Below are positions 19,695-52,233 of a stretch of DNA of 64,000 bases, piece after piece. The position numbers were made by a program, and so were the translations under genes. Position 1 is the stretch's first letter; the number at the start of each line of letters is the position of its first letter. A model generated the notes under the pieces. It did not search any database. It was given only the letters and a program-made list of their open reading frames with translations, and was not told the DNA's origin. This DNA is from Escherichia phage 241: the sequence record OR924452; one strand, 5' to 3'.

Positions 19695-20357
19695 ATGTCG
19701 TATTCGCTCAAAGGGTTGTTGAAGCGCCCCGTACATCTGTTTGTAAAACCACCTGCTGTCGAAGGGGAATATCCGGCACGAGGAGAGTTGTATTACGTTA
19801 AAGGCTCCAACGGTAGCGGCAAGTCCACTGTCCCTTCCTATCTGGCGGAGAATGATCCTCAGGCGTATGTCGTGACCTACAATGGCAAGATCATGCTCAC
19901 AGTTTGCCCTTCCTATAACATTATCTGTATTGGTAAATATGACAAGTCTAAGTCTAAAGGTGTTGATTCCCTGAAAGATACCGAGCAGATGTTGTTCGCC
20001 TTGTCCATTGCTGATCAGCCGGAATATCTGAAATATGACGTGTTGTTTGAAGGAATCATCCCTTCAACTTTGCTCAGCTCATGGATTCCCCGCCTGACGC
20101 GCCCACCGCGCGAATTAGTCGTGCTCTTCATGGACACCCCGCTTGAAACCTGTGTTTCCCGTGTGAAATCACGCAACGGCGGCGCAGACTTCAATGAAAG
20201 CCTGGTTGTCGAAAAGTGGGAGAGAGTTCATGACCACCGCCAACGGCATAAAGGCTTGTTCCCTACCGTTCCCGCAGGTATGATGAAGTCCAATGGCCTG
20301 ACTATAGAGCAGGCTGTTTTTGCGTTTCTCAATCGCGATTTTGGGAGTATTGATTGA
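19695..20357 (+). CDS. P-loop kinase-fold protein (candidate nucleotide or DNA-base kinase)
   Basis: Walker A GSNGSGKST; about 220 aa; TTGGAG RBS; directly upstream of the pyrimidine hydroxymethylase. Confidence 0.55.
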   Translation: MSYSLKGLLKRPVHLFVKPPAVEGEYPARGELYYVKGSNGSGKSTVPSYLAENDPQAYVVTYNGKIMLTVCPSYNIICIGKYDKSKSKGVDSLKDTEQMLFALSIADQPEYLKYDVLFEGIIPSTLLSSWIPRLTRPPRELVVLFMDTPLETCVSRVKSRNGGADFNESLVVEKWERVHDHRQRHKGLFPTVPAGMMKSNGLTIEQAVFAFLNRDFGSID

Positions 20358-21397
20358 TGGAAATTTTTGCTTTAAACAATAATGATATGCTGAAGAAGGC
20401 TGTGTTGGCCATCCGTGAACACGGCATTGAGTCAGATCCTGGCAACGCAGAGATTAACACGGACGGCACTCGTTTCATTGATGGTGTAACAATTACAGTA
20501 TCAGATCCACGTGATCGTTGGCTTTCCGTTGAAGGCCGTAACTCGTCGGCAATTGCTGCCATCGGTGAGACATTCTGGGTGTTGTCCGGACGTAATGATA
20601 TCCGTTTCCTTTCGAAAGTCTTACCCCGCGCCGCCAACTTCTCTGATGACGGTGTAACCTGGCGAGGCGCGTATGGCCCACGTCTGTACAATAATGGCCA
20701 GTTGGATAGTGTCATCAGCCGTCTGCGTAATAATCCCAACACCCGTCAGGCGTATCTCACCATCTATGATCCGGCGCTGGACTCAGATGAAGGTTTGGCC
20801 GCCCATAGTGAAACTGGAGAAGCCAAGACCAAGGACATGATCTGTAATCTTGCTCTATTGTTCAGTATAACAGAAGGGCGATTGAATATCACTGTCATTA
20901 ACCGCAGCCAAGATGTCTTGTGGGGTATGAGTTCAATCAATTTCATTGAATTCTCTATCCTGCAAGAAGTTCTGGCGAAAGTGCTGAATGTCGAAGTTGG
21001 GTATTACAAACTGTTTTCTAACAATCTTCATTATTACAACAATGAAGTTAGTCGGAAACAACTCGGGGGTATCACTAAGAAGACCAAAACTTCTTCTGGG
21101 ATGTATAATTCTTTGCTGGAATTCTCTTCAGAAAAAGTGAAGTCGCAAAAAGATATTTGTAATCTATTCCTCGGCGTGTTACATCACTGTGACATCGGCA
21201 GTGATTTTGGTAAAATCAGAGAACATCTGAAAGGATATCAAGCAGACACGGGATTGATGATGGATATGTCATATTGCCTGTGGTGTCGACTCAATGATAC
21301 CAAAATTGACAAACGCCGTATCGCTGATGACGGTCTTCGTACTGCATTACTGCATTCCTCTGTTGATCAGAAATTTATGTGGGGGTATGGCGAATGA
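20354..21397 (+). CDS. deoxypyrimidine-nucleotide hydroxymethylase (thymidylate-synthase superfamily, gp42-like) with C-terminal extension
   Basis: RQAYLTIYDP and DMICNLALLFSI...VINRSQDVLWG parallel T4 gp42 RRGIMIYTRP and DFMCTNTVQYLI...VNMRSNDVVFG, including the catalytic Cys; 347 aa vs 246 aa in T4. Confidence 0.7.
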   Translation: MMEIFALNNNDMLKKAVLAIREHGIESDPGNAEINTDGTRFIDGVTITVSDPRDRWLSVEGRNSSAIAAIGETFWVLSGRNDIRFLSKVLPRAANFSDDGVTWRGAYGPRLYNNGQLDSVISRLRNNPNTRQAYLTIYDPALDSDEGLAAHSETGEAKTKDMICNLALLFSITEGRLNITVINRSQDVLWGMSSINFIEFSILQEVLAKVLNVEVGYYKLFSNNLHYYNNEVSRKQLGGITKKTKTSSGMYNSLLEFSSEKVKSQKDICNLFLGVLHHCDIGSDFGKIREHLKGYQADTGLMMDMSYCLWCRLNDTKIDKRRIADDGLRTALLHSSVDQKFMWGYGE

Positions 21398-21963
21398 TGT
21401 ACCAGAACCTTGAATTCTTCACGGGGCGCAAGCGCTCCGGCAAGGACTTCTGTTTGGAGTCCCTGATCAGTTTTCATCATATTCAGGGTGATAAGGATAT
21501 TCGTCGTCTGTCTTTCTCAGATGAACTGCGACGTGTCGCCAATTTCATCTATCCATGGCTACCAGCGGAGGTGGAGGATGCTGTGAAGGACGTTCCATTC
21601 GTACACCCTGATAACCCCAAGGGCTTAACCCCACGGCAGATCTGGCTTCATCTGGGCAGCGATACGGGCTTGCGTTATGTACAACCAGACCTGTTCCTGT
21701 CATTCTTTAAACGATATCAACTTCCTTTGGTGGAGCAGAACCCACACGTTCATTATATCGTGAGTGATTTGCGTACCCCTCAGGAATATGAATGGGCGCT
21801 GAGCACTAAATGTCCCATCACCCGCATTTCAAAGGCGGATCGCGGTGGTATCATAGAGGATGACATTGAGGCTTTCATTGATAAGATGGAAGTTGATTAT
21901 GAATTTGTCAATCCGTTTGAAGGTTGGCAACCGTTCGTCAAATTTTATAGGGATCGGAAATGA
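21394..21963 (+). CDS. 1: deoxynucleoside monophosphate kinase (T4 gp1-like)
   Basis: P-loop FFTGRKRSGKDF matches T4 gp1 LSGVKRSGKDT; ATGA overlap with the hydroxymethylase. Confidence 0.7.
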   Translation: MMYQNLEFFTGRKRSGKDFCLESLISFHHIQGDKDIRRLSFSDELRRVANFIYPWLPAEVEDAVKDVPFVHPDNPKGLTPRQIWLHLGSDTGLRYVQPDLFLSFFKRYQLPLVEQNPHVHYIVSDLRTPQEYEWALSTKCPITRISKADRGGIIEDDIEAFIDKMEVDYEFVNPFEGWQPFVKFYRDRK

Positions 21964-22517
21964 TCACAGCAGAGCATATTAAAAGTCTGCTCGAACTTCA
22001 AAAGGCCACCAACGTGGCCTATTTTGGGGAAGAGTGGAAGAATGTATGGAGTCAGAACGCCGTCGTCAACTCCATATATCGTGAGTGGGCAGAGTTTCTT
22101 GACGAAACGACCGCCGACTGGAAGGTCTATGGTAACGATATCGGCTTCGACCGCACGAAGGCGGTCTATGAACTGGTGGACGTGGTTCACTTCATGCTGT
22201 GTTTCATCCTCGTCGATCGCACCAAAGGAGAGATCGAGGAAGAATTAGAGGAAATGTCTAAGGATAGTTATGCCATGTCTATCGTTAACGGCATAGTTGC
22301 CCACGGCGGGGTGACCTACCGCTTTGGACAGTTCATGGGCGATCCTTGCGTTCGTTCCCTGATGTATTTCCTGAGCGCGTCTTGCTCTTACGTGGGGCTG
22401 GGCGCCGAAACTTACATGCTGGCACACAAACGCAAAAATGATCGCAATCGGCTGCGTGCTGCTGGCGGTGCGAACTACGATAAGTCCGCAGAAACCCCTC
22501 TGACCCTGGAGTTCTAA
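21960..22517 (+). CDS. 56: dimeric dUTPase/dCTPase-family NTP pyrophosphatase (T4 gp56-like)
   Basis: ELVDVVHFMLCFIL aligns with T4 gp56 ELVDIFHFVLNMFV; N-terminal EW...W...E motifs; substrate cannot be assigned from sequence. Confidence 0.6.
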   Translation: MITAEHIKSLLELQKATNVAYFGEEWKNVWSQNAVVNSIYREWAEFLDETTADWKVYGNDIGFDRTKAVYELVDVVHFMLCFILVDRTKGEIEEELEEMSKDSYAMSIVNGIVAHGGVTYRFGQFMGDPCVRSLMYFLSASCSYVGLGAETYMLAHKRKNDRNRLRAAGGANYDKSAETPLTLEF

Positions 22518-23047
22518 TGTTTACAGTTGTCGTATCATATTATGCGGAACATGCCCCGCGCATGGCAGAGAACTTCGCTGAGTTTATTAAACCAGGCGGT
22601 CATGTCGTTATTGCGACCAATTTCAAGAAAGAGCCAGATGGTGCGGCTACTGTAACACAACATATTACAACCAAAGAGCCGGAAACACTTTTTAAACGCA
22701 TTGAAGATTTTGCTTTTGGCGGGGAAGAAATTCCAGAGTCATTACAGCATATCTATTTTGAAGATGCGATATATTATGTTCATGCTATACCAAAAGATGT
22801 TACAACCGAACAACTAATGTATGTTTTGAATATTGCGTTAAATTTGTCATGTGTCAACAGGGCACAGCATAATCGTTTGCGCAATATGTATTTAACAGAA
22901 CGCGGGGGTTCCGGAATCAGTGATGAAAAACTCCCGTCGGTAATGGCAATTCAAGAAGCAATTAACATATTGTCCAAGAAAGTCTTGGGCACCGATTTAT
23001 TAATCACGATCAACAAGCAAGAGGAAACGAAATGGCCGATTCATTGA
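22517..23047 (+). CDS. hypothetical protein (176 aa)
   Basis: ORF between the gp56-like gene and uvsX. Confidence 0.45.
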   Translation: MFTVVVSYYAEHAPRMAENFAEFIKPGGHVVIATNFKKEPDGAATVTQHITTKEPETLFKRIEDFAFGGEEIPESLQHIYFEDAIYYVHAIPKDVTTEQLMYVLNIALNLSCVNRAQHNRLRNMYLTERGGSGISDEKLPSVMAIQEAINILSKKVLGTDLLITINKQEETKWPIH

Positions 23048-39382: not shown

Positions 39383-39904
39383 TTAATTCCTTACTTTGTC
39401 AGGATTAGATAAGATTTGTTCGTATCCGACTTCTCCTTGATAGTCGAAAACATGCTGAAGAATCGCCATATCGTCTACCATCCGATAAACTTCAATTCCA
39501 GCGTTCATCAATTTTTTGATTCCATCCATAATACGATATGGCTCACGATAATATACTTTATCGATTTTACCGCTATCTATTATCTTTTGAGTGCAATTAG
39601 GGCAAGGACTATGTGTCACAAACATAACCAACCCTGTGAAATCATCTACATTTTCGGGGATACGCATTAGAGCATTTTCCTCCGCATGAACGACACACGG
39701 GTTTGTAACAATTTGCCCGTGTTGTTCCATCTCACAAACATTCGGCATGCCAGGAGGCGTTCCGTTCCATCCTATAGCCACAGGCTGATCAGTTTCAGGG
39801 TTTACAATAACACAACCGACTTGCAGACGCCGAGCATAACTGGTTACACCATATGCTGCAGCTGATCGCATATGAGCAAACATCATACGTGGTTTGATAG
39901 CCAT
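39383..39904 (-). CDS. cd: dCMP deaminase
   Basis: Zinc-binding motifs HAEENAL and PCPNC. Confidence 0.85.
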   Translation of the reverse strand: MAIKPRMMFAHMRSAAAYGVTSYARRLQVGCVIVNPETDQPVAIGWNGTPPGMPNVCEMEQHGQIVTNPCVVHAEENALMRIPENVDDFTGLVMFVTHSPCPNCTQKIIDSGKIDKVYYREPYRIMDGIKKLMNAGIEVYRMVDDMAILQHVFDYQGEVGYEQILSNPDKVRN

Positions 39905-41364: not shown

Positions 41365-41921
41365 AATATGATTCCTAAATTTGTGTATAACAATTCAGCT
41401 AGAGTAACAGGTCGTTTGAATTGTTCCCAGCTGCAGTTCAGATATTCACGTTCTTCGCGGATCTTTTCGTGAAGATGTCCATGGATATTATACGCCCAAC
41501 GATCTAATTGATACGGAACGTGTGTAGTCAGAATCCGACCGACAGAAGTATCCCGCTCATACATGGCACCAAAGGATGTAATCCAGCCCTCCAGATACAA
41601 CCGCATTAACATTTTGAAACTGTCGTGGTTGCCCTGTGCCACCCTGATGATAAAGTTCGGACGCCATTCATCGGGAACGGGGCGGCGCTTGAACTCATCA
41701 ATGTTCCGCTTGGCTCCTTCGCGCATCAGGCGTATGAACCCCTCAGCGCCGATAAAGCAGATGTCCCCCGCCAGTTCAAGGACATCCCGAGATTTCAGCC
41801 CTTGGAATATGCTGTCTATAACCGCAGCATCATGGGATTCTTGAGTATCGAATCCACGAGGTTTAAAGACTTTTTTATGCCCGAGGTGAGTGTCACCAAG
41901 GTACTTGACAATTCCTGCCAT
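41361..41921 (-). CDS. calcineurin-like metallophosphoesterase
   Basis: GDTHLGH ... GNHD ... HGHLHE motifs. Confidence 0.6.
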
Positions 41922-42388
41922 CAGATTCTTTCCTTCTCGGAGATACGGTCATGTGCGTTCTTTAACATTGCGTCCGACCAGTTAGACCAATCGAATACAT
42001 TAATAGAACTCACACCGTTATACAAATCCAATATAGTGGGAGAGAGCTGAATATTTAGAGCGCAAGGATCATCACTTTCAACGACCTTCAACCAAAATAA
42101 TTTTTTGTCTAGTAATTCGCGGGAGATACGTCTATACTTGGTAGCAGCTTCTTCACACCACCTTTCTAAGATCATCATCAATTCCCTTTCGATCCCAAAC
42201 CGAAACTCTGGTGTATTGGGTAAGCCGTGATAAGCAGACTTGAATCGATATTCCGTGACTTCATTTAATCGTGATATTAAGGGAACGACGAAACACGTTT
42301 GGAACTCATATTTCCAAGCTCTTTCGAGAACACTAATAATCTCATCACGTTCACATTGACTTAATTTCATTATGGCCTCCTCATCCAT
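41921..42388 (-). CDS. hypothetical protein (155 aa)
   Basis: ORF. Confidence 0.45.
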
Positions 42389-42724: not shown

Positions 42725-43387
42725 CTATGATAACTCATAGCGATGGCGGGTACATGCAGGGCAATTACAGTCTTTTCTCAAAATTGGCATTTCACACCAC
42801 GTCATCAAACCATGTATTGGAGACATGTGGTGATAAAACCATGATTTTTTGAGACTAATCAAAGGATATAAAATTTCAATTGGCCTTTCCCCGTCTCTTG
42901 TCATCATATTGTATCCTTCGATGACCTTATTGAAAGCTGGGATCCAGTGGATCGCGTCGTCCCCGTTGACATATGCCAATATGTATGTGGGAGGCAAACT
43001 CCGGCCTTTAAATTGTGTGTTTAATAACCATATCGGGGCTTGTGCTAAACACGCACGAAACCCGCCGTCCGGCACGTGAATGCTACTAATCGGTTCTTGG
43101 TGATGAGTCCAACGATGCATAAGAAGCGGAGCATTCTTGTTGATCCAATTATAAATTTTATTTCGCGCCCAATTCTCACGTTTGGATTTGAAATTATTAT
43201 TTTCAAGATGGCAATACACAGTATGAACCGAATAACCTTTCGATAATAACCAAACCAACATGTATGTGCTATCCACGCCGCCTGACCAAAACAATGTCAC
43301 TTCTTGATTATTTTCCGGCAAAGGTGCATCCCCTTGAAGGACACGGTACACAAATTCACAATCAGATACAGAGACAACGATTTCCAT
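42725..43387 (-). CDS. PP-loop ATP pyrophosphatase, QueC-like
   Basis: SGGVDST PP-loop near the N-terminus; C-terminal Cys cluster WCEMPILRKDCNCPACTRHR resembling the QueC zinc site; about 220 aa. Confidence 0.5.
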   Translation of the reverse strand: MEIVVSVSDCEFVYRVLQGDAPLPENNQEVTLFWSGGVDSTYMLVWLLSKGYSVHTVYCHLENNNFKSKRENWARNKIYNWINKNAPLLMHRWTHHQEPISSIHVPDGGFRACLAQAPIWLLNTQFKGRSLPPTYILAYVNGDDAIHWIPAFNKVIEGYNMMTRDGERPIEILYPLISLKKSWFYHHMSPIHGLMTWCEMPILRKDCNCPACTRHRYELS

Positions 43388-44779: not shown

Positions 44780-45116
44780 CGGTTTCCCCCGCTTTCTCTA
44801 AAAGAAGTTTCAAAGGATATGTCCCACAAGCGGTGGCATATTCAACTCTGAAATATGAATTATCGTTCATGGCGAAATTGCGATGAGGAAAATATTCACC
44901 ATCATCAAAACCACCCATCCCTCCACCGACGCGATATTGTTTCAATTCTACTTCGCCACCGTAACGCAGTTGGGCGTAGAGACCGATAGGAGCGCGAACA
45001 TAATGCTCCAGCCACACCCAATTACCGTCATGTAGACGAGTGGGCAAAAATGCAAACCGTACCTTGGGATGAAGAACGGCTTTAGCCAACATTTCTTCCG
45101 TCACTTCAGATTTCAT
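44772..45116 (-). CDS. hypothetical protein (114 aa)
   Basis: ORF. Confidence 0.4.
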   Translation of the reverse strand: MKSEVTEEMLAKAVLHPKVRFAFLPTRLHDGNWVWLEHYVRAPIGLYAQLRYGGEVELKQYRVGGGMGGFDDGEYFPHRNFAMNDNSYFRVEYATACGTYPLKLLLEKAGETDV

Positions 45117-45718
45117 CCGATGCTTTCCTCTTCGATGACGTCTTCTTCATTAGGAACAACAGAGATCCCAAAGTCGATCATTTGAGAGAGTTCTTGTAAA
45201 TCCTTTTCGAATCCATCCCCTTCCCGAATATAGAATACTGGGACCACGCGGCGGCGAGTATCTTCAAAGATGGTTTCGGCGATTTTGTTAATCTGGCCTA
45301 CCACATGTGTGAGATTCAAGCCACCAATACCACAACCGATGGCGGGCAAACCGACATAGACAGTTTCATCAGCTTTGGCTTCAACGATATCATGAATTTG
45401 TTCAAACATGATCTGGACTGAGCTAATGATAGATGGCATGCGAGCATTGGGACCTGGGTAAAATTGAGTATACAAATTGAATCCCCAGACACCAGTGTCA
45501 TGATCAAACGCATAGGACATGTTCCCCAAGCGCTGTTCCGGACCACGTTCATCTAATTGGTCGGCGCGGTAAATCTCTGGGAAATTCAATCGAACGTGAT
45601 TGGCGATACCCGCGCCCATTACAGACCAACAATTTGCGCCGTGAGCAAAGGCATTGATAAGATTGAAACTCGTGGCGGCTTTTAATAAATCGCCATTTGT
45701 GATAATATAAGTGGTCAT
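45113..45718 (-). CDS. macro-domain protein (ADP-ribose binding/processing)
   Basis: ITNGDLL...INAFAHGANCWSVMGAGIANH typical of macro domains; start set at ATG 45718 (ATGA coupling). Confidence 0.6.
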   Translation of the reverse strand: MTTYIITNGDLLKAATSFNLINAFAHGANCWSVMGAGIANHVRLNFPEIYRADQLDERGPEQRLGNMSYAFDHDTGVWGFNLYTQFYPGPNARMPSIISSVQIMFEQIHDIVEAKADETVYVGLPAIGCGIGGLNLTHVVGQINKIAETIFEDTRRRVVPVFYIREGDGFEKDLQELSQMIDFGISVVPNEEDVIEEESIG

Positions 45719-45951
45719 GCGTAACGTCTCCATTGTATAATTTCGTTGTCGACACAACTGACCTGAATGATACACATATTCTGGCGATGGTCGGTGAGTG
45801 TAATAATAAAACTGTCTGGTTGTGACATGACACGATTAACAGATATCCCGCGCGACATCAAACGAAAGCAAATTTCTTGATACAAACGTTGCATATATCC
45901 TGAAACAGAAGCCGATTCATATGCGCGTTCAAATTCGTATAATTCGTTCAT
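45715..45951 (-). CDS. hypothetical protein (78 aa)
   Basis: ORF. Confidence 0.4.
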   Translation of the reverse strand: MNELYEFERAYESASVSGYMQRLYQEICFRLMSRGISVNRVMSQPDSFIITLTDHRQNMCIIQVSCVDNEIIQWRRYA

Positions 45952-48343: not shown

Positions 48344-50254
48344 TTATTCTCCCTCTGTTTCAAACAAACAAACATCACTAAACCAGGTTTTGCGGTAATC
48401 GGCGGTCTCATCACCGAAGCCGTTCTTCAGTGATTCTTTGTAGTTGTCATCCAACGTGACCGTCGTAGTATACGCATCCAGATTGTTTAGAATACGTTTG
48501 AAGTCTTCAGTGCTGTTACCACCAAGACCTTTCAGATATTTCTTCTTCGTAATCTTCTTGGCGTCAGGGGTTTTTAAAAATTCTTCATATTCCGTATTGC
48601 TCATAAACTCATACATCGTTTTACCACACCAAATACGCATGTATGGTGTGCGCAGGAGTTTCAGCCTACCCTGACGGACGTACTCCGGCCAATATGTGCA
48701 ATACAGAGTAATCAACAAACCACGGATGTGAATGCCATCATCGTCCGCATCGGTGGCTACAACAGTCTGTGGGTAGCGGGTGATATCAATCGGCTGACCT
48801 GGGACTGCGCCTCCATGAATCGTGCAAAGATTCTTGAACTCCTCATTATTCATTACCTTTGATCGCGGATTGTTTAAACAATTGATGAATTTACCACGCA
48901 AAGGGAATAATCCGATCTTTTTAGTATCACGGGCGTTCAGGATAGGATTGGACGCGCTGTCACCTTCAGTCAATAACAGAGAGCACCCACTGCGATCACC
49001 ACGGGCGGTCGCCGGATAATACTTCTCTATCTCACGATAATCCCGTTTGCTAATATCCTTCTTGGCCTTTTCAAATTCAGCATCATCTTGGTCGTTACGC
49101 AAGGCGGCCAATTCTTTGCTCAGGCCAGCTGTGACAAACTCCAGAGCCTTCCGGATTAGTTTATCGCTGGGCTTATAGGTCGTACCAAACTGGCTAACAG
49201 GAGTCGTCATACGCTCCTTGGTTTGGCTATCAAAACGAGGGTTGTTGATATCAGCCGAGATGAAAAGCATCATATGGTTTTTAATCATAGAAGGCTTCAG
49301 ATCAGTCTTAAACTTTTTCACCAATTGTGGGCGAATCGCATTCACGATCTGGTCAGCAACGTAATCCACATGAGGACCACCGATATGGGTGGCAATGCTG
49401 TTCACATATGATGCATGAATAAACGTCCCTTGTGAAGGAGCAACAGCAACAGACCACTCCTCTGTTTCATCAACAGAAGAACCTTGGCAAAAGTAATCCA
49501 CAAAATGGCCAAATCGGTCGATACGGATTTGTTTCCCGTTCAGAATGACTTTCAGGCGCGGGTTACAAGCAGCCACTTCAAATGCTCGGCGATAGATCAT
49601 CAACAAGTTATTTTGATCAAGACCTTTGACACCCAGACGCGCATAATCAGGTATCCATGCGATAGACGTCCCAGGGGCATTCAAATTACTGATCACCGGA
49701 TTAGAACGTTTGCTCAAATTGTCTTCAAATGTTTGAGTGTAAGACTTCTTCCCGTCATTTGTCGTGACACGGAACCATTTTGAAAATACGTTGACCAGTG
49801 AAGCCCCTTCACCGTTCTGCCCACCTGATTTTTTGTTATTGTATTCTTCATCGTCGTCGTTGAAGTTGCTACCCGCATAGAGGGAGCCAAATAACATCTC
49901 AGGGAGCCATTCCTTTGTCTCCCCGTGTTTAACAACCGGAATACCCCCATTGTCAGCCACGATGATCTGACCATTCATAGGAGAAACGGTAATGGTGATT
50001 TCTGTGAGGCTTTTACCTTCTGGCGTTTTGCTATGATCTACAGAGTTGGTGATAATTTCATCAAACTGTTTAATCAATGCAGGAGAATATTCAAAATTAT
50101 CCTTGAATATAACTTGATCTTTTATTGGATCATATATCCAAGTCGTTCCAACGGCTGAACGGATACTGCCCAGATGACGCTCTGGGCGAAGAAGGATATG
50201 CTCTATGTGAGTGAGCTTTTTGTATTTTCGTTCAATATCAATCATATTAGACAT
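48344..50254 (-). CDS. 39: DNA topoisomerase II large subunit (gp39, GyrB-like ATPase plus Toprim; appears to include the gp60-equivalent region)
   Basis: 636 aa; GHKL ATPase and Toprim pattern; longer than T4 gp39. Confidence 0.85.
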   Translation of the reverse strand: MSNMIDIERKYKKLTHIEHILLRPERHLGSIRSAVGTTWIYDPIKDQVIFKDNFEYSPALIKQFDEIITNSVDHSKTPEGKSLTEITITVSPMNGQIIVADNGGIPVVKHGETKEWLPEMLFGSLYAGSNFNDDDEEYNNKKSGGQNGEGASLVNVFSKWFRVTTNDGKKSYTQTFEDNLSKRSNPVISNLNAPGTSIAWIPDYARLGVKGLDQNNLLMIYRRAFEVAACNPRLKVILNGKQIRIDRFGHFVDYFCQGSSVDETEEWSVAVAPSQGTFIHASYVNSIATHIGGPHVDYVADQIVNAIRPQLVKKFKTDLKPSMIKNHMMLFISADINNPRFDSQTKERMTTPVSQFGTTYKPSDKLIRKALEFVTAGLSKELAALRNDQDDAEFEKAKKDISKRDYREIEKYYPATARGDRSGCSLLLTEGDSASNPILNARDTKKIGLFPLRGKFINCLNNPRSKVMNNEEFKNLCTIHGGAVPGQPIDITRYPQTVVATDADDDGIHIRGLLITLYCTYWPEYVRQGRLKLLRTPYMRIWCGKTMYEFMSNTEYEEFLKTPDAKKITKKKYLKGLGGNSTEDFKRILNNLDAYTTTVTLDDNYKESLKNGFGDETADYRKTWFSDVCLFETEGE

Positions 50255-50301
50255 CGGCCTATCCCGTCAATGGTAAACACAAGATTATGTATGGGGTCGG
50301 C

Positions 50302-50880
50302 TTATAGACCAAATTTACCGCGCCATTTCTGTACTTTGTGTTCAATGGCATGCTCAACTTTGACTATGGTGCTTTTTAGGTTATGGTTGTGATCACAAGC
50401 CAGTTTGGCAGTGTGTCGGATGACACCATTTACCAAATCGGCCAGATTATCATCTGTTCTTTGTGGTTGGTTGAGTAATCTGGTAATGCGACCTTTGTAG
50501 TGGTTGATCATCGCTAGTTGCTCGTCCAAACTATCAACCCCACCACAGAACCAATAATCTTCTAATGTGTGTTGTGTGAGGTCACTTGTACCGTTGGCCC
50601 GAGACAGAGAGAACACGATCGAATCAAATATCTCGTCTTTGTTCATAGAGCCATATTGTTGAATATGCTGATATTCACAAACATACAACAAGTCCAGTGC
50701 TGAAATAATAACGTCTGCCACTTCACCATTCAGAGGTTCTGAAGCAGAAATTTCATATAACACGTCAGACAATTCGCAAGTTTCTTCAACAAGTTTACAG
50801 AACACAAATACAGATGGGCGATTCGGTTCTTTCTGGCTGAGTTCATAAGATGTTTCTAAGATGCGACGAATAAATTTCAT
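50302..50880 (-). CDS. MazG-like nucleotide pyrophosphohydrolase (tentative)
   Basis: LVEETCELSDV...GEVADVIISALDLL fits the MazG EExxE...E/D pattern. Confidence 0.4.
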   Translation of the reverse strand: MKFIRRILETSYELSQKEPNRPSVFVFCKLVEETCELSDVLYEISASEPLNGEVADVIISALDLLYVCEYQHIQQYGSMNKDEIFDSIVFSLSRANGTSDLTQHTLEDYWFCGGVDSLDEQLAMINHYKGRITRLLNQPQRTDDNLADLVNGVIRHTAKLACDHNHNLKSTIVKVEHAIEHKVQKWRGKFGL

Positions 50881-51377
50881 TTCAAATATCCTTCTAAGCG
50901 AAAGCGGTTGATATGTTGTATGATAAAGTCCATAGAGTTTTGAAAACTATATTTCCCCTGATGCTCATATGCATGAATAAGGGGAAGTCGGCTGTGAGCC
51001 AATTGGAATCGCAGTCTTGGTGGCATAGACAACAACTTGGCTGATGTCGCCGCGATAATACGAGAACGCAATATGGGGGAATCTGAATCAACGAGAGGGA
51101 TTTGCGTTTTACCCAAATCCAATCCATACATCTTGGCTTCATAACCACTCAGATGCCGAAGAGCATCATCGCGATATTTTATCCAGTACCAATAACCCTC
51201 GATAGAATCGAAGTGTCCGTCCAGGGTTTCAATCGGATGATGGGTAAAATGCGATAGGAATTTTCCCAGATCAGTCCGGCTTTGGCTGTATATGTTATAA
51301 TGATTGACACCCTCAGTTATAGGCGTCATCGCTTTCTTTGAAACATTCAGTAATATAAGCATGATATAGAGTCTCAA
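50877..51377 (-). CDS. hypothetical protein (possible NADAR-like domain)
   Basis: FTHHPIETLDGHFDSIEGYWYWIKY weakly resembles the NADAR signature; speculative. Confidence 0.35.
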   Translation of the reverse strand: MRLYIMLILLNVSKKAMTPITEGVNHYNIYSQSRTDLGKFLSHFTHHPIETLDGHFDSIEGYWYWIKYRDDALRHLSGYEAKMYGLDLGKTQIPLVDSDSPILRSRIIAATSAKLLSMPPRLRFQLAHSRLPLIHAYEHQGKYSFQNSMDFIIQHINRFRLEGYLK

Positions 51378-51402
51378 ATCAAAATTGCTGTGTGTAATCA
51401 GG

Positions 51403-51594
51403 TCAAATCTTTTTATATGCTTTCAGGGTACAGATAATAGAGACGCCGCCAAATAGAACGAGCAATATGAATCGTTCCATCCTAAAATCAGGAAGGGAAA
51501 GCAGTCCCACAAGGCTGTCTAAAGCAATCATGAACGTTACTCCAGTCAGCATGCCCAACTTAAAGGAGTTGGAACCTCTTTTGCAACGTAGCAT
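51403..51594 (-). CDS. small membrane protein (63 aa)
   Basis: ORF, hydrophobic. Confidence 0.35.
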   Translation of the reverse strand: MLRCKRGSNSFKLGMLTGVTFMIALDSLVGLLSLPDFRMERFILLVLFGGVSIICTLKAYKKI

Positions 51595-51641
51595 AAATCA
51601 CCTCCGATTCAAATGGGGAGTTTCCTCCCCATACAAATTAT

Positions 51642-52145
51642 CTAGCCCAGAAACACTACTAAAGTCAAATTTGTAAAGCAGCTGCGATTATCTTTTAACA
51701 TTTGATGGGCAGCGGAAAGGCGCTTAGCATCATGCAGAGTATCTGAAAACACGATGATATTGGCCTTGTCGATTTTGGTTCCCATAAAATTGGCCATGGT
51801 CGACGTTTTCTCTTTTCGATCAAATTTTTCATACTGCTCCCCTGTGGTTACATTTTTCGATTGAGTGAAAAACGTATCACGTTCACGAGCAGTGTGAAAT
51901 ACACCGAATACGTCGATTTCATTTTCAATTTGGAATTTTTCAGAAAGGAGTTTCTTTAACGCCGCAGTGTGACCAGTCTGGCGAAGCATTCGATAGTAGA
52001 GCATGCTCCCACTGTCTGCGGGATCAAGGTCGTGACGAATCCGGCGATCTTTTTGAATTTCATACGCATCTAGAACCAATTGTTGGATCATTTCAATATG
52101 CGCATTAAGAGATACTTCTACTTTTCGTTTAACTAGAGATTTCAT
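51642..52145 (-). CDS. hypothetical protein (167 aa)
   Basis: ORF. Confidence 0.45.
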   Translation of the reverse strand: MKSLVKRKVEVSLNAHIEMIQQLVLDAYEIQKDRRIRHDLDPADSGSMLYYRMLRQTGHTAALKKLLSEKFQIENEIDVFGVFHTARERDTFFTQSKNVTTGEQYEKFDRKEKTSTMANFMGTKIDKANIIVFSDTLHDAKRLSAAHQMLKDNRSCFTNLTLVVFLG

Positions 52146-52233
52146 TGTTGGAGCCTCGAATTTACGTTCCGCTCATGGGGAACATAAAAATTATACCCTT
52201 AGACACAACAATGAAAAAGAGGCCGAAGCCTCT

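Follow-up and report, generated by a model that had tools for sequence, protein, structure and literature searches.

The window analysed here, a stretch of 64,000 nucleotides from Escherichia phage 241 (record OR924452), is a Kuttervirus genome (Vi01-like, Ackermannviridae) and carries on its minus strand two adjacent open reading frames (ORFs), ORF B (50877-51362) and ORF A (50302-50880). As judged from its sequence and predicted structure, ORF B, of 161 amino acids (aa), appears to be a diverged NADAR-superfamily protein whose character is nearest to that of the His-type NADARs of phages, with E55, K62, K77, G80, H130 and Y132 as key residues. ORF A, of 192 aa, presents a MazG-like core (residues 5-95) and a C-terminal helix (166-192), between which a helical subdomain (approximately residues 96-165) appears to be inserted. 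The surrounding region (49800-52200) is 99% identical at the DNA level to Salmonella phages SeF3a, GEC_vB_GOT and Vi01 and to Kuttervirus phages of E. coli O157, and is matched by 263 phage records. Both genes are mostly annotated as 'hypothetical protein' in the matching records, while some pipelines name the counterparts of ORF A 'MazG-like pyrophosphatase' or 'viral tegument-like protein' and one record names that of ORF B 'putative N-glycosidase'; the assignments discussed below are not wholly new, and they are inconsistent between records. A search of the literature on Kuttervirus or Ackermannviridae with MazG or DarTG found no functional study of the two genes. Both are genuine conserved genes, whose conservation lies far beyond chance, since they have 49 (ORF A, E values down to 1e-125) and 29 (ORF B, down to 1e-100) homologous clusters and their motif residues are invariant.

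An earlier, sequence-only reading of the window had pointed to these two ORFs, with an EExxE signature in ORF A and the motif FTHHPIETLDGHFDSIEGYWYWIKY in ORF B; its coordinates and motifs proved correct, and both ORFs are on the minus strand. In the program-made ORF list, ORF B extends from 50877 to 51377, with a TTG start and 166 aa. Its true start is likely the ATG at 51362, because the homologues are 160-162 aa long and the same start is annotated in phage SeF3a; the ATG at 51329 and the TTG at 51377 are the alternatives. The stop codon of ORF B and the start codon of ORF A overlap in an ATGA (50877-50880, minus strand), which suggests that the two genes may be translationally coupled. A GAAGGA site resembling a Shine-Dalgarno sequence for ORF A (50889-50894, minus strand) is located within the 3' end of ORF B, 8 nucleotides upstream of the ORF A start; both features were read from the sequence.

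The assignment of ORF B is carried by its predicted fold and by family profiles. Its AlphaFold2 (AF2) model, with a predicted local distance difference test (pLDDT) score of 94.4, has the NADAR topology, with a hairpin (44-51), five helices (54-63, 66-70, 73-86, 96-111 and 115-123), a second hairpin (131-140) and a C-terminal helix. When this model was compared with the PDB using Foldseek, the top three matches were E. coli YbiA (2b3w), a Phytophthora NADAR with ADP-ribose (8bau) and the NADAR of Geobacter DarG1 (8bat), every other match having a probability below 0.1. At the sequence level, ORF B matches PHROG 652 ('unknown function', E 2e-51), and profile searches enlarged the family to 1,249 clusters, most of them of 140-155 aa and almost none annotated by Pfam. 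An 87-sequence profile of this family (A3) gave hhalign probabilities of 85% to T4 gp30.3 (AdfN) and 87% to YbiA, versus 0.1-0.3% for unrelated controls. Against 8bau, A3 aligned the FLSNF, S-x-E and AKxxGR motifs in a weak match (E 0.059) which, like the match of ORF A to MazZ described below (E 0.18), is useful only through the correct motifs being aligned.

Pfam itself offers little purchase on the family. Among the 87 members, the Pfam family matched most often was PF08010 (Phage_30_3), with four of them, tied with one unrelated family; this was the sole NADAR-related match, and all four hits were weak and below the family threshold (best E 0.0036). PF08719 (NADAR) was not among the 25 Pfam families most often matched by these members at E values up to 1. 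A six-frame hmmsearch of phage rV5 at E values up to 10 found no ORF B family member, and since rV5 served as the stand-in for the Vequintavirinae phage Bas60, no direct link to the tested AdfN of the Bas60 type was obtained in this way. A search of IMG/VR for a diverse gp30.3 profile returned only near-identical T4-like copies.

The residues of ORF B can be compared with those of characterised NADARs, whose roles were taken from published studies (PMC11543638, PMC11825919, PMC11125620); in these, the catalytic residue of the late strand is Glu in the YbiA family, Asp in BC4488 and DarG1, and His in the phage gp30.3 type. E55 corresponds to the catalytic Glu that binds the distal ribose (E43 in Phytophthora, E88 in E. 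coli C7 and E36 in T4); it is aligned to the Glu of 8bau, T4 gp30.3 and YbiA, and is invariant both in a set of 30 sequences and in the 87. K62, at E55+7, corresponds to the catalytic, phosphate-binding Lys (K50, K95 and K43, respectively) and is kept in most Ackermannviridae homologues, while K77 and G80, equivalent to Phytophthora K75 and G78, are both invariant. H130, found in all 87 sequences, lies at the start of strand 131-134 of the model and aligns with the Glu of the 'LVEH' segment of YbiA (the T4 His being one column off in the MAFFT alignment), a Glu with an Asp five and a Trp eight residues further on, as with E125, D130 and W133 of Phytophthora.

The NADAR-like guess of the sequence-only reading, which had been offered as weak, is thus upheld at the superfamily level, and is refined here to the His-variant 'phage NADAR' type. 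By analogy with the NADARs of T4, Bas32 and Bas60, which have been shown by experiment to remove guanine ADP-ribose from DNA and to neutralise DarTG1 (PMC11825919), the most likely role of ORF B is that of an AdfN-type orphan enzyme that de-ADP-ribosylates DNA. It would act as a free-standing, gp30.3-like ADP-ribosyl N-glycohydrolase in which His replaces the Glu of YbiA, removing the guanine ADP-ribose put on phage DNA by a DarT1-type or related toxin of the host. Like T4 AdfN, it would be an orphan antitoxin, and its expression would coincide with that of replication and topology genes.

Several observations weigh against this proposal. ORF B has no match in Pfam or NCBIfam even at E 10, and none in PADLOC. 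The wider family usually has Ser or Gly at E+7, often with a Lys at +9. In the Kuttervirus clade, the AKxxGR Arg, equivalent to the pyrophosphate-contacting R79 of Phytophthora, has given way to Leu (L81 in ORF B) or is variable, whereas it is present in most of the family, and the D/W that follow AKxxGR in the wider family are also lost. The D-x-x-W-G loop of YbiA and the Phytophthora NADAR is absent from ORF B, as it also is from T4 gp30.3. In one study, T4 gp30.3 alone failed to rescue DarT1 toxicity (PMC11125620), so that in-vivo specificity is not predictable from the fold. Finally, there is a natural deletion variant, P0029 (95 aa; 4 contigs, the longest of 61 kb), in which about 26 N-terminal residues come from the histone-like protein encoded upstream and the remainder from the C-terminal half of the NADAR-like protein, the two parts meeting at an 'LD' common to both. 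Its sequence implies that in some Ackermannviridae-like phages a microhomology deletion has taken out the small membrane gene together with the catalytic half of ORF B, and, since the N-terminal half of ORF B is missing from this variant, the gene can be dispensed with in some settings.

The lost equivalents of R79 and of the D/W, the missing DxxWG loop and the existence of P0029 would all fit a catalytically degraded NADAR fold, restricted to ligand binding or recruited to some other role. Such a degradation is very improbable, given that E55, the YWYW block, A76, K77, G80, H130 and Y132 are invariant across 87 diverse sequences, as is typical of a selected active site, and that T4 gp30.3, also devoid of the loop, reportedly has activity (PMC11825919). 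The altered ligand-contact residues and the failure of gp30.3 to rescue leave room for other substrates of ORF B, such as RNA adducts or soluble ADP-ribose derivatives. It has been argued that phage NADAR and macro domains act mainly against low-molecular-weight ADP-ribose derivatives (Iyer et al., PMC9503650), and NADARs also de-modify guanosine and cytidine adducts of RNA (PMC11833690, PMC12945103). An active NADAR directed at a non-DNA target (soluble immune signals or by-products derived from ADP-ribose, RNA ADP-ribosylated on guanine or cytosine, or, as with YbiA, intermediates of the riboflavin pathway) would also agree with the altered ligand pocket suggested by the losses in the Kuttervirus clade. 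This option is nevertheless unlikely, because guanine-ADP-ribosylated DNA is a substrate of every phage NADAR tested so far (PMC11825919, PMC11125620), because ORF B keeps K77, the equivalent of a Lys that is needed for DarT1 rescue and not for catalysis (PMC11543638), and because the gene is located among DNA replication and topology genes.

The distribution of the ORF B family is wide. Relatives occur in 570 phage records, including Ackermannviridae, jumbo phages, Vibrio and Erwinia phages and a Staphylococcus phage protein annotated as DUF1768, and on many metagenomic phage contigs, where they are always free-standing and without a toxin neighbour; all the contexts examined were phage or viral. 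In the window, the neighbours of ORF B are a histone-like gene, a small membrane protein gene, ORF A and topoisomerase II, with no DarT toxin among them. Three metagenomic relatives (P0100, P0115 and P0149) carry DUF4326 (PF14216) attached to one or the other end of the NADAR-like domain, a recurrent fusion partner that may point to the pathway of these enzymes.

ORF A contains the segment 'LVEETCEL' (E32 E33 x x E36), followed by 'GEVADVII' (E53 x x D56), and matches PHROG 1247 ('MazG-like pyrophosphatase') with an E value of 7e-38. The alignment of its 49 homologues has 47 invariant columns, which include E32, E33, E36, E48, D56, E83, D86 and E107 (E53 being nearly invariant), the cluster H127, G130, R131, R134, N137, Q138, P139 and R141, and also E176, K182, K185, W186 and R187. 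In the predicted model (pLDDT 94), which has the all-alpha four-helix core fold, the EExxE and ExxD motifs, acidic and of the metal-binding type, are placed on helices 23-41 and 50-76, and they align with the same motifs of MazZ (7ody; the profile match itself is weak, E 0.18) and of small MazG proteins. The PDB structures matched by the model are dimeric dUTPases, MazG, HisE, RS21-C6, iMazG and MazZ, all of them named all-alpha pyrophosphohydrolases. The MazG-type guess of the earlier reading holds at the superfamily level, and neither of the outcomes that it had named as refuting, a lack of significant profile matches or predicted folds unrelated to MazG or NADAR, was obtained. Pfam and NCBIfam gave no direct match to either ORF; the profile evidence came from PHROG 1247 and small MazG-type proteins for ORF A and from hhalign to T4 gp30.3 and YbiA for ORF B.

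An exhaustive HMMER search with an ORF A profile, over 1.84 billion representative proteins, retrieved only 33 relatives. About a dozen of these are full length, and the others, proteins of approximately 100-120 aa or C-terminal domains, match nothing beyond residues 5-95 and the last helix. Several of the relatives of about 110 aa match Pfam MazG or PRA-PH just below threshold, and one, P0186, passes PF03819 (25.7 versus 22 bits); hhalign between the ORF A profile and P0186 gave a probability of 96.8%. Because the short relatives match only these parts and P0186 aligns so clearly, the predicted architecture of ORF A is that of a MazG core with a conserved helical insert of about 70 residues, a two-subdomain arrangement like that of dimeric dUTPases; the insert would probably serve as a substrate lid. 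On this sequence and model evidence, ORF A is most likely an active metal-dependent pyrophosphohydrolase of nucleoside triphosphates (or diphosphates), within the all-alpha MazG/HisE/dimeric-dUTPase superfamily. Against this assignment, ORF A itself has no match in Pfam (PF03819 and PF01503 included), NCBIfam or PADLOC, no substrate can be inferred for it, and it shows no sequence similarity to the dUTPase_2 protein of the phage or to T4 gp56. The family occurs in 279 phage records, three of which, from Aeromonas phages, look like outliers (one of them, Aeromonas phage 31, being a weak partial match), and in 19 IMG/VR loci, each on a contig of 152-162 kb; it is confined to Ackermannviridae.

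As a guess at its specific function, a role of ORF A in the nucleotide pool for DNA based on 5-hydroxymethyldeoxyuridine (5-hmdU; PMC5889632) would be the most attractive. ORF A would in that case be a second nucleotide-pool enzyme of thymidine hypermodification, namely a dTTPase or a pyrophosphatase of dUTP, dUDP or a 5-hmdUTP-related nucleotide, that excludes dTTP or supplies dUMP in the manner of T4 gp56 or cyanophage MazZ. Its whole-chain fold is predicted to be similar to that of dimeric dUTPases. ORF A, however, has no PF08761 (dUTPase_2) match, and carries 'EVADVIIS' where the PF08761 protein of the window and T4 gp56 show the 'ELVDxxHF' type ('ELVDVVHF' and 'ELVDIFHF'). Furthermore, a recognisable dUTPase_2 already lies beside the modification genes, ORF A is not among the listed ViI hypermodification genes, and it is 28 kb away from the modification cluster, which makes this role possible and on balance doubtful. 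ORF A is thus not a recognisable dUTPase, the recognisable one being encoded at 21960-22517. Descent of ORF A as a paralogue of that protein or of T4 gp56 was also considered and rejected (hhalign 0.3-0.4%).

The modification cluster occupies positions 20354-23047 of the plus strand, and comprises a thymidylate-synthase homologue that is probably a dUMP hydroxymethylase (20354-21397), a kinase-like gene (21379-21963), the dUTPase_2 protein (PF08761, 21960-22517) and a phage ACT-like domain protein (22517-23047). Elsewhere, a minus-strand block that also holds several small ORFs encodes a QueC/ThiI-like PP-loop ATPase (42725-43387, weak Pfam matches) and a dCMP deaminase (39383-39904), both of which may bear on nucleotide or base modification. 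A 155-aa ORF at 41921-42388 (minus strand; PHROG 17979, unknown function) has no Pfam or PDB match; it is also present in phage Mooltan and is absent at this place in SeF3a, which is otherwise 99% identical, so that it represents a whole-gene indel.

The earlier reading had proposed, as a check, to look for co-occurrence in related phages. In 18 of the 19 Ackermannviridae loci from IMG/VR, ORF B directly precedes ORF A and the ATGA junction is the same, and overlapping junctions are found in the distant relatives L123 and L124 too. One functional module might be envisaged on this basis, in which ORF B frees ADP-ribose from nucleic acid and ORF A destroys the ADP-ribose or a related pyrophosphate product, as the ATGA-coupled pair is kept in all the Ackermannviridae-like genomes examined, down to approximately 48% identity, and in more distant relatives. 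In a bolder form, the pair, conserved throughout Ackermannviridae, would be a two-step counter-defence module in which the NADAR strips ADP-ribose from hypermodified DNA and the pyrophosphohydrolase destroys the released ADP-ribose or another defence-derived nucleotide, providing, with the DarG-like macro domain described below, cover against both DarT1- and DarT2-type toxins; this is a speculative proposal with a low probability. The simpler module is equally improbable. When the neighbours of 60 NADAR-like loci outside the phage family were clustered, none had an ORF A-like neighbour and no recurrent partner emerged, and even distant relatives keep the gene order from rIIB to topoisomerase II, so that synteny alone suffices. 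There is also, to our knowledge, no description of ADP-ribose hydrolysis by a member of the MazG superfamily. Synteny within the lineage, and not a general functional link, is thus the best explanation of the pairing, since the whole rIIB-topoisomerase block is conserved and 0 of the 60 outside loci have the partner.

The two genes probably belong to a transcription unit that, as read from its sequence signals, would consist of the histone-like gene, the gene of a 63-aa membrane protein, ORF B, ORF A and the topoisomerase II genes. Upstream of the histone-like gene, a consensus scan found a terminator-like hairpin (52235-52216, minus strand) and, after it, a good promoter-like site (TTTTCA-16-TATAAT, 52217-52190, minus strand; consensus matches only), which together mark the probable start of the unit; the phage Mooltan record has a terminator annotated at the equivalent place. 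Between this promoter-like site and the topoisomerase II genes, the scan gave no minus-strand terminator with a convincing stem and T-tract, and the sole other minus-strand match (51213-51197), inside ORF B, has a weak stem. The 'histone family DNA-binding' gene (PHROG 4164; 51642-52145, minus strand) has no Pfam match; it is intact here, with 167 aa, and is annotated as two coding sequences in SeF3a, which suggests a frameshift or a sequencing error in the SeF3a record.

The macro domain that the earlier reading had mentioned also exists, separate from the gene pair, in a 220-aa protein (45113-45775, minus strand) of the family of T4 Tk.4 and PHROG 335 ('phosphatase'). A regular-expression search of the window for macro-domain motifs returned nothing, and the protein was found instead through PHROG 335, and then through the PDB and PADLOC. 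Its best phmmer matches in the PDB are DarG macrodomains (5m3i, E 3.7e-5, and 5m31, E 2e-3), and it matches the DarG model of PADLOC (E 2e-10) over the macro domain only; by sequence, therefore, it is a DarG-like protein. We take the Lys of the 'FPTK' segment of DarG to be the catalytic K80; the phage protein does not keep it and has 'YPGPN' there. This family is present in 2,734 phage records. A phage macrodomain, AdfM, has been reported to play against DarTG2 the part that the NADARs of T4, Bas32 and Bas60 play against DarTG1 (PMC13309987).

Taken as a whole, the locus is best explained, with somewhat better than even confidence, by a pair of co-transcribed and probably translationally coupled accessory enzymes in a DNA-metabolism region, of which ORF B would be an ADP-ribosyl N-glycohydrolase of the phage NADAR type and ORF A a pyrophosphohydrolase. 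The genes, their conservation, order and distribution, their folds and their conserved residues of catalytic type are the observations from which we infer these activities, their substrates and the role against DarT. Phages of the Ackermannviridae, such as Vi01, CBA120 and their relatives, have wide use in biocontrol and therapy directed at Salmonella and E. coli O157, and placing ORF B in the NADAR superfamily leads to the testable prediction that such phages resist DNA ADP-ribosylation of the DarTG1 type. The ORF B family, with more than 1,200 clusters and, as far as examined here, phage or viral contexts only, is missed by Pfam, which means that current counts of phage NADARs are underestimates. 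ORF A, for its part, would define an insert-bearing MazG variant unique to this phage family, and its substrate could bear on the nucleotide metabolism behind hypermodified thymidine. Both assignments concern subfamilies of known kinds that are invisible to Pfam; they do not overturn current understanding and would hardly surprise a specialist.

Among known systems, ORF A can be compared with the small MazG-type enzymes (PF03819; MazZ of cyanophage S-2L, 7ody, iMazG and RS21-C6) and with HisE, but it is twice as long as these, has no direct Pfam match and bears, in the insert 96-165, the invariant H127, R131, R134, N137-Q138-P139 and R141. Relative to the dimeric dUTPases (staphylococcal phage phiDI, 5myd, and Campylobacter, 1w2y; PF08761) and to the dCTPase/dUTPase gp56 of T4, it lacks the 'ELVDxxHF' motif, and it has no detectable sequence similarity to the PF08761 protein of the window or to gp56. 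ORF B has the same fold as YbiA, the Phytophthora NADAR and the NADAR of Geobacter DarG1 (2b3w, 8bau and 8bat; Schuller et al. 2023, PMC11543638), with which its N-terminal 'iNfYS...FSNF', S-x-E and AKxxG motifs align; it differs from them in having His and not Glu or Asp on the late strand, in the absence of the DxxWG phosphate-binding loop and of a PF08719 match, and in not belonging to a toxin-antitoxin operon. The closest counterpart is gp30.3 of T4, or AdfN(T4) (PF08010; Johannesman et al. 2025, PMC11825919), although identity is only about 20%, ORF B itself has no PF08010 match, and ORF B additionally presents a conserved N-terminal 'DGxtHiNiYS' block, the YWYW block and the clade-specific Leu in place of the AKxxGR Arg. 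Like ORF B, gp30.3 is a free-standing phage protein of approximately 150-160 aa with a NADAR fold, and the two have in common a motif of the FLSNF type, the catalytic Glu followed by Lys at +7, a His where YbiA has its Glu, a C-terminal helix, and the lack of both the DxxWG loop and an adjacent toxin.

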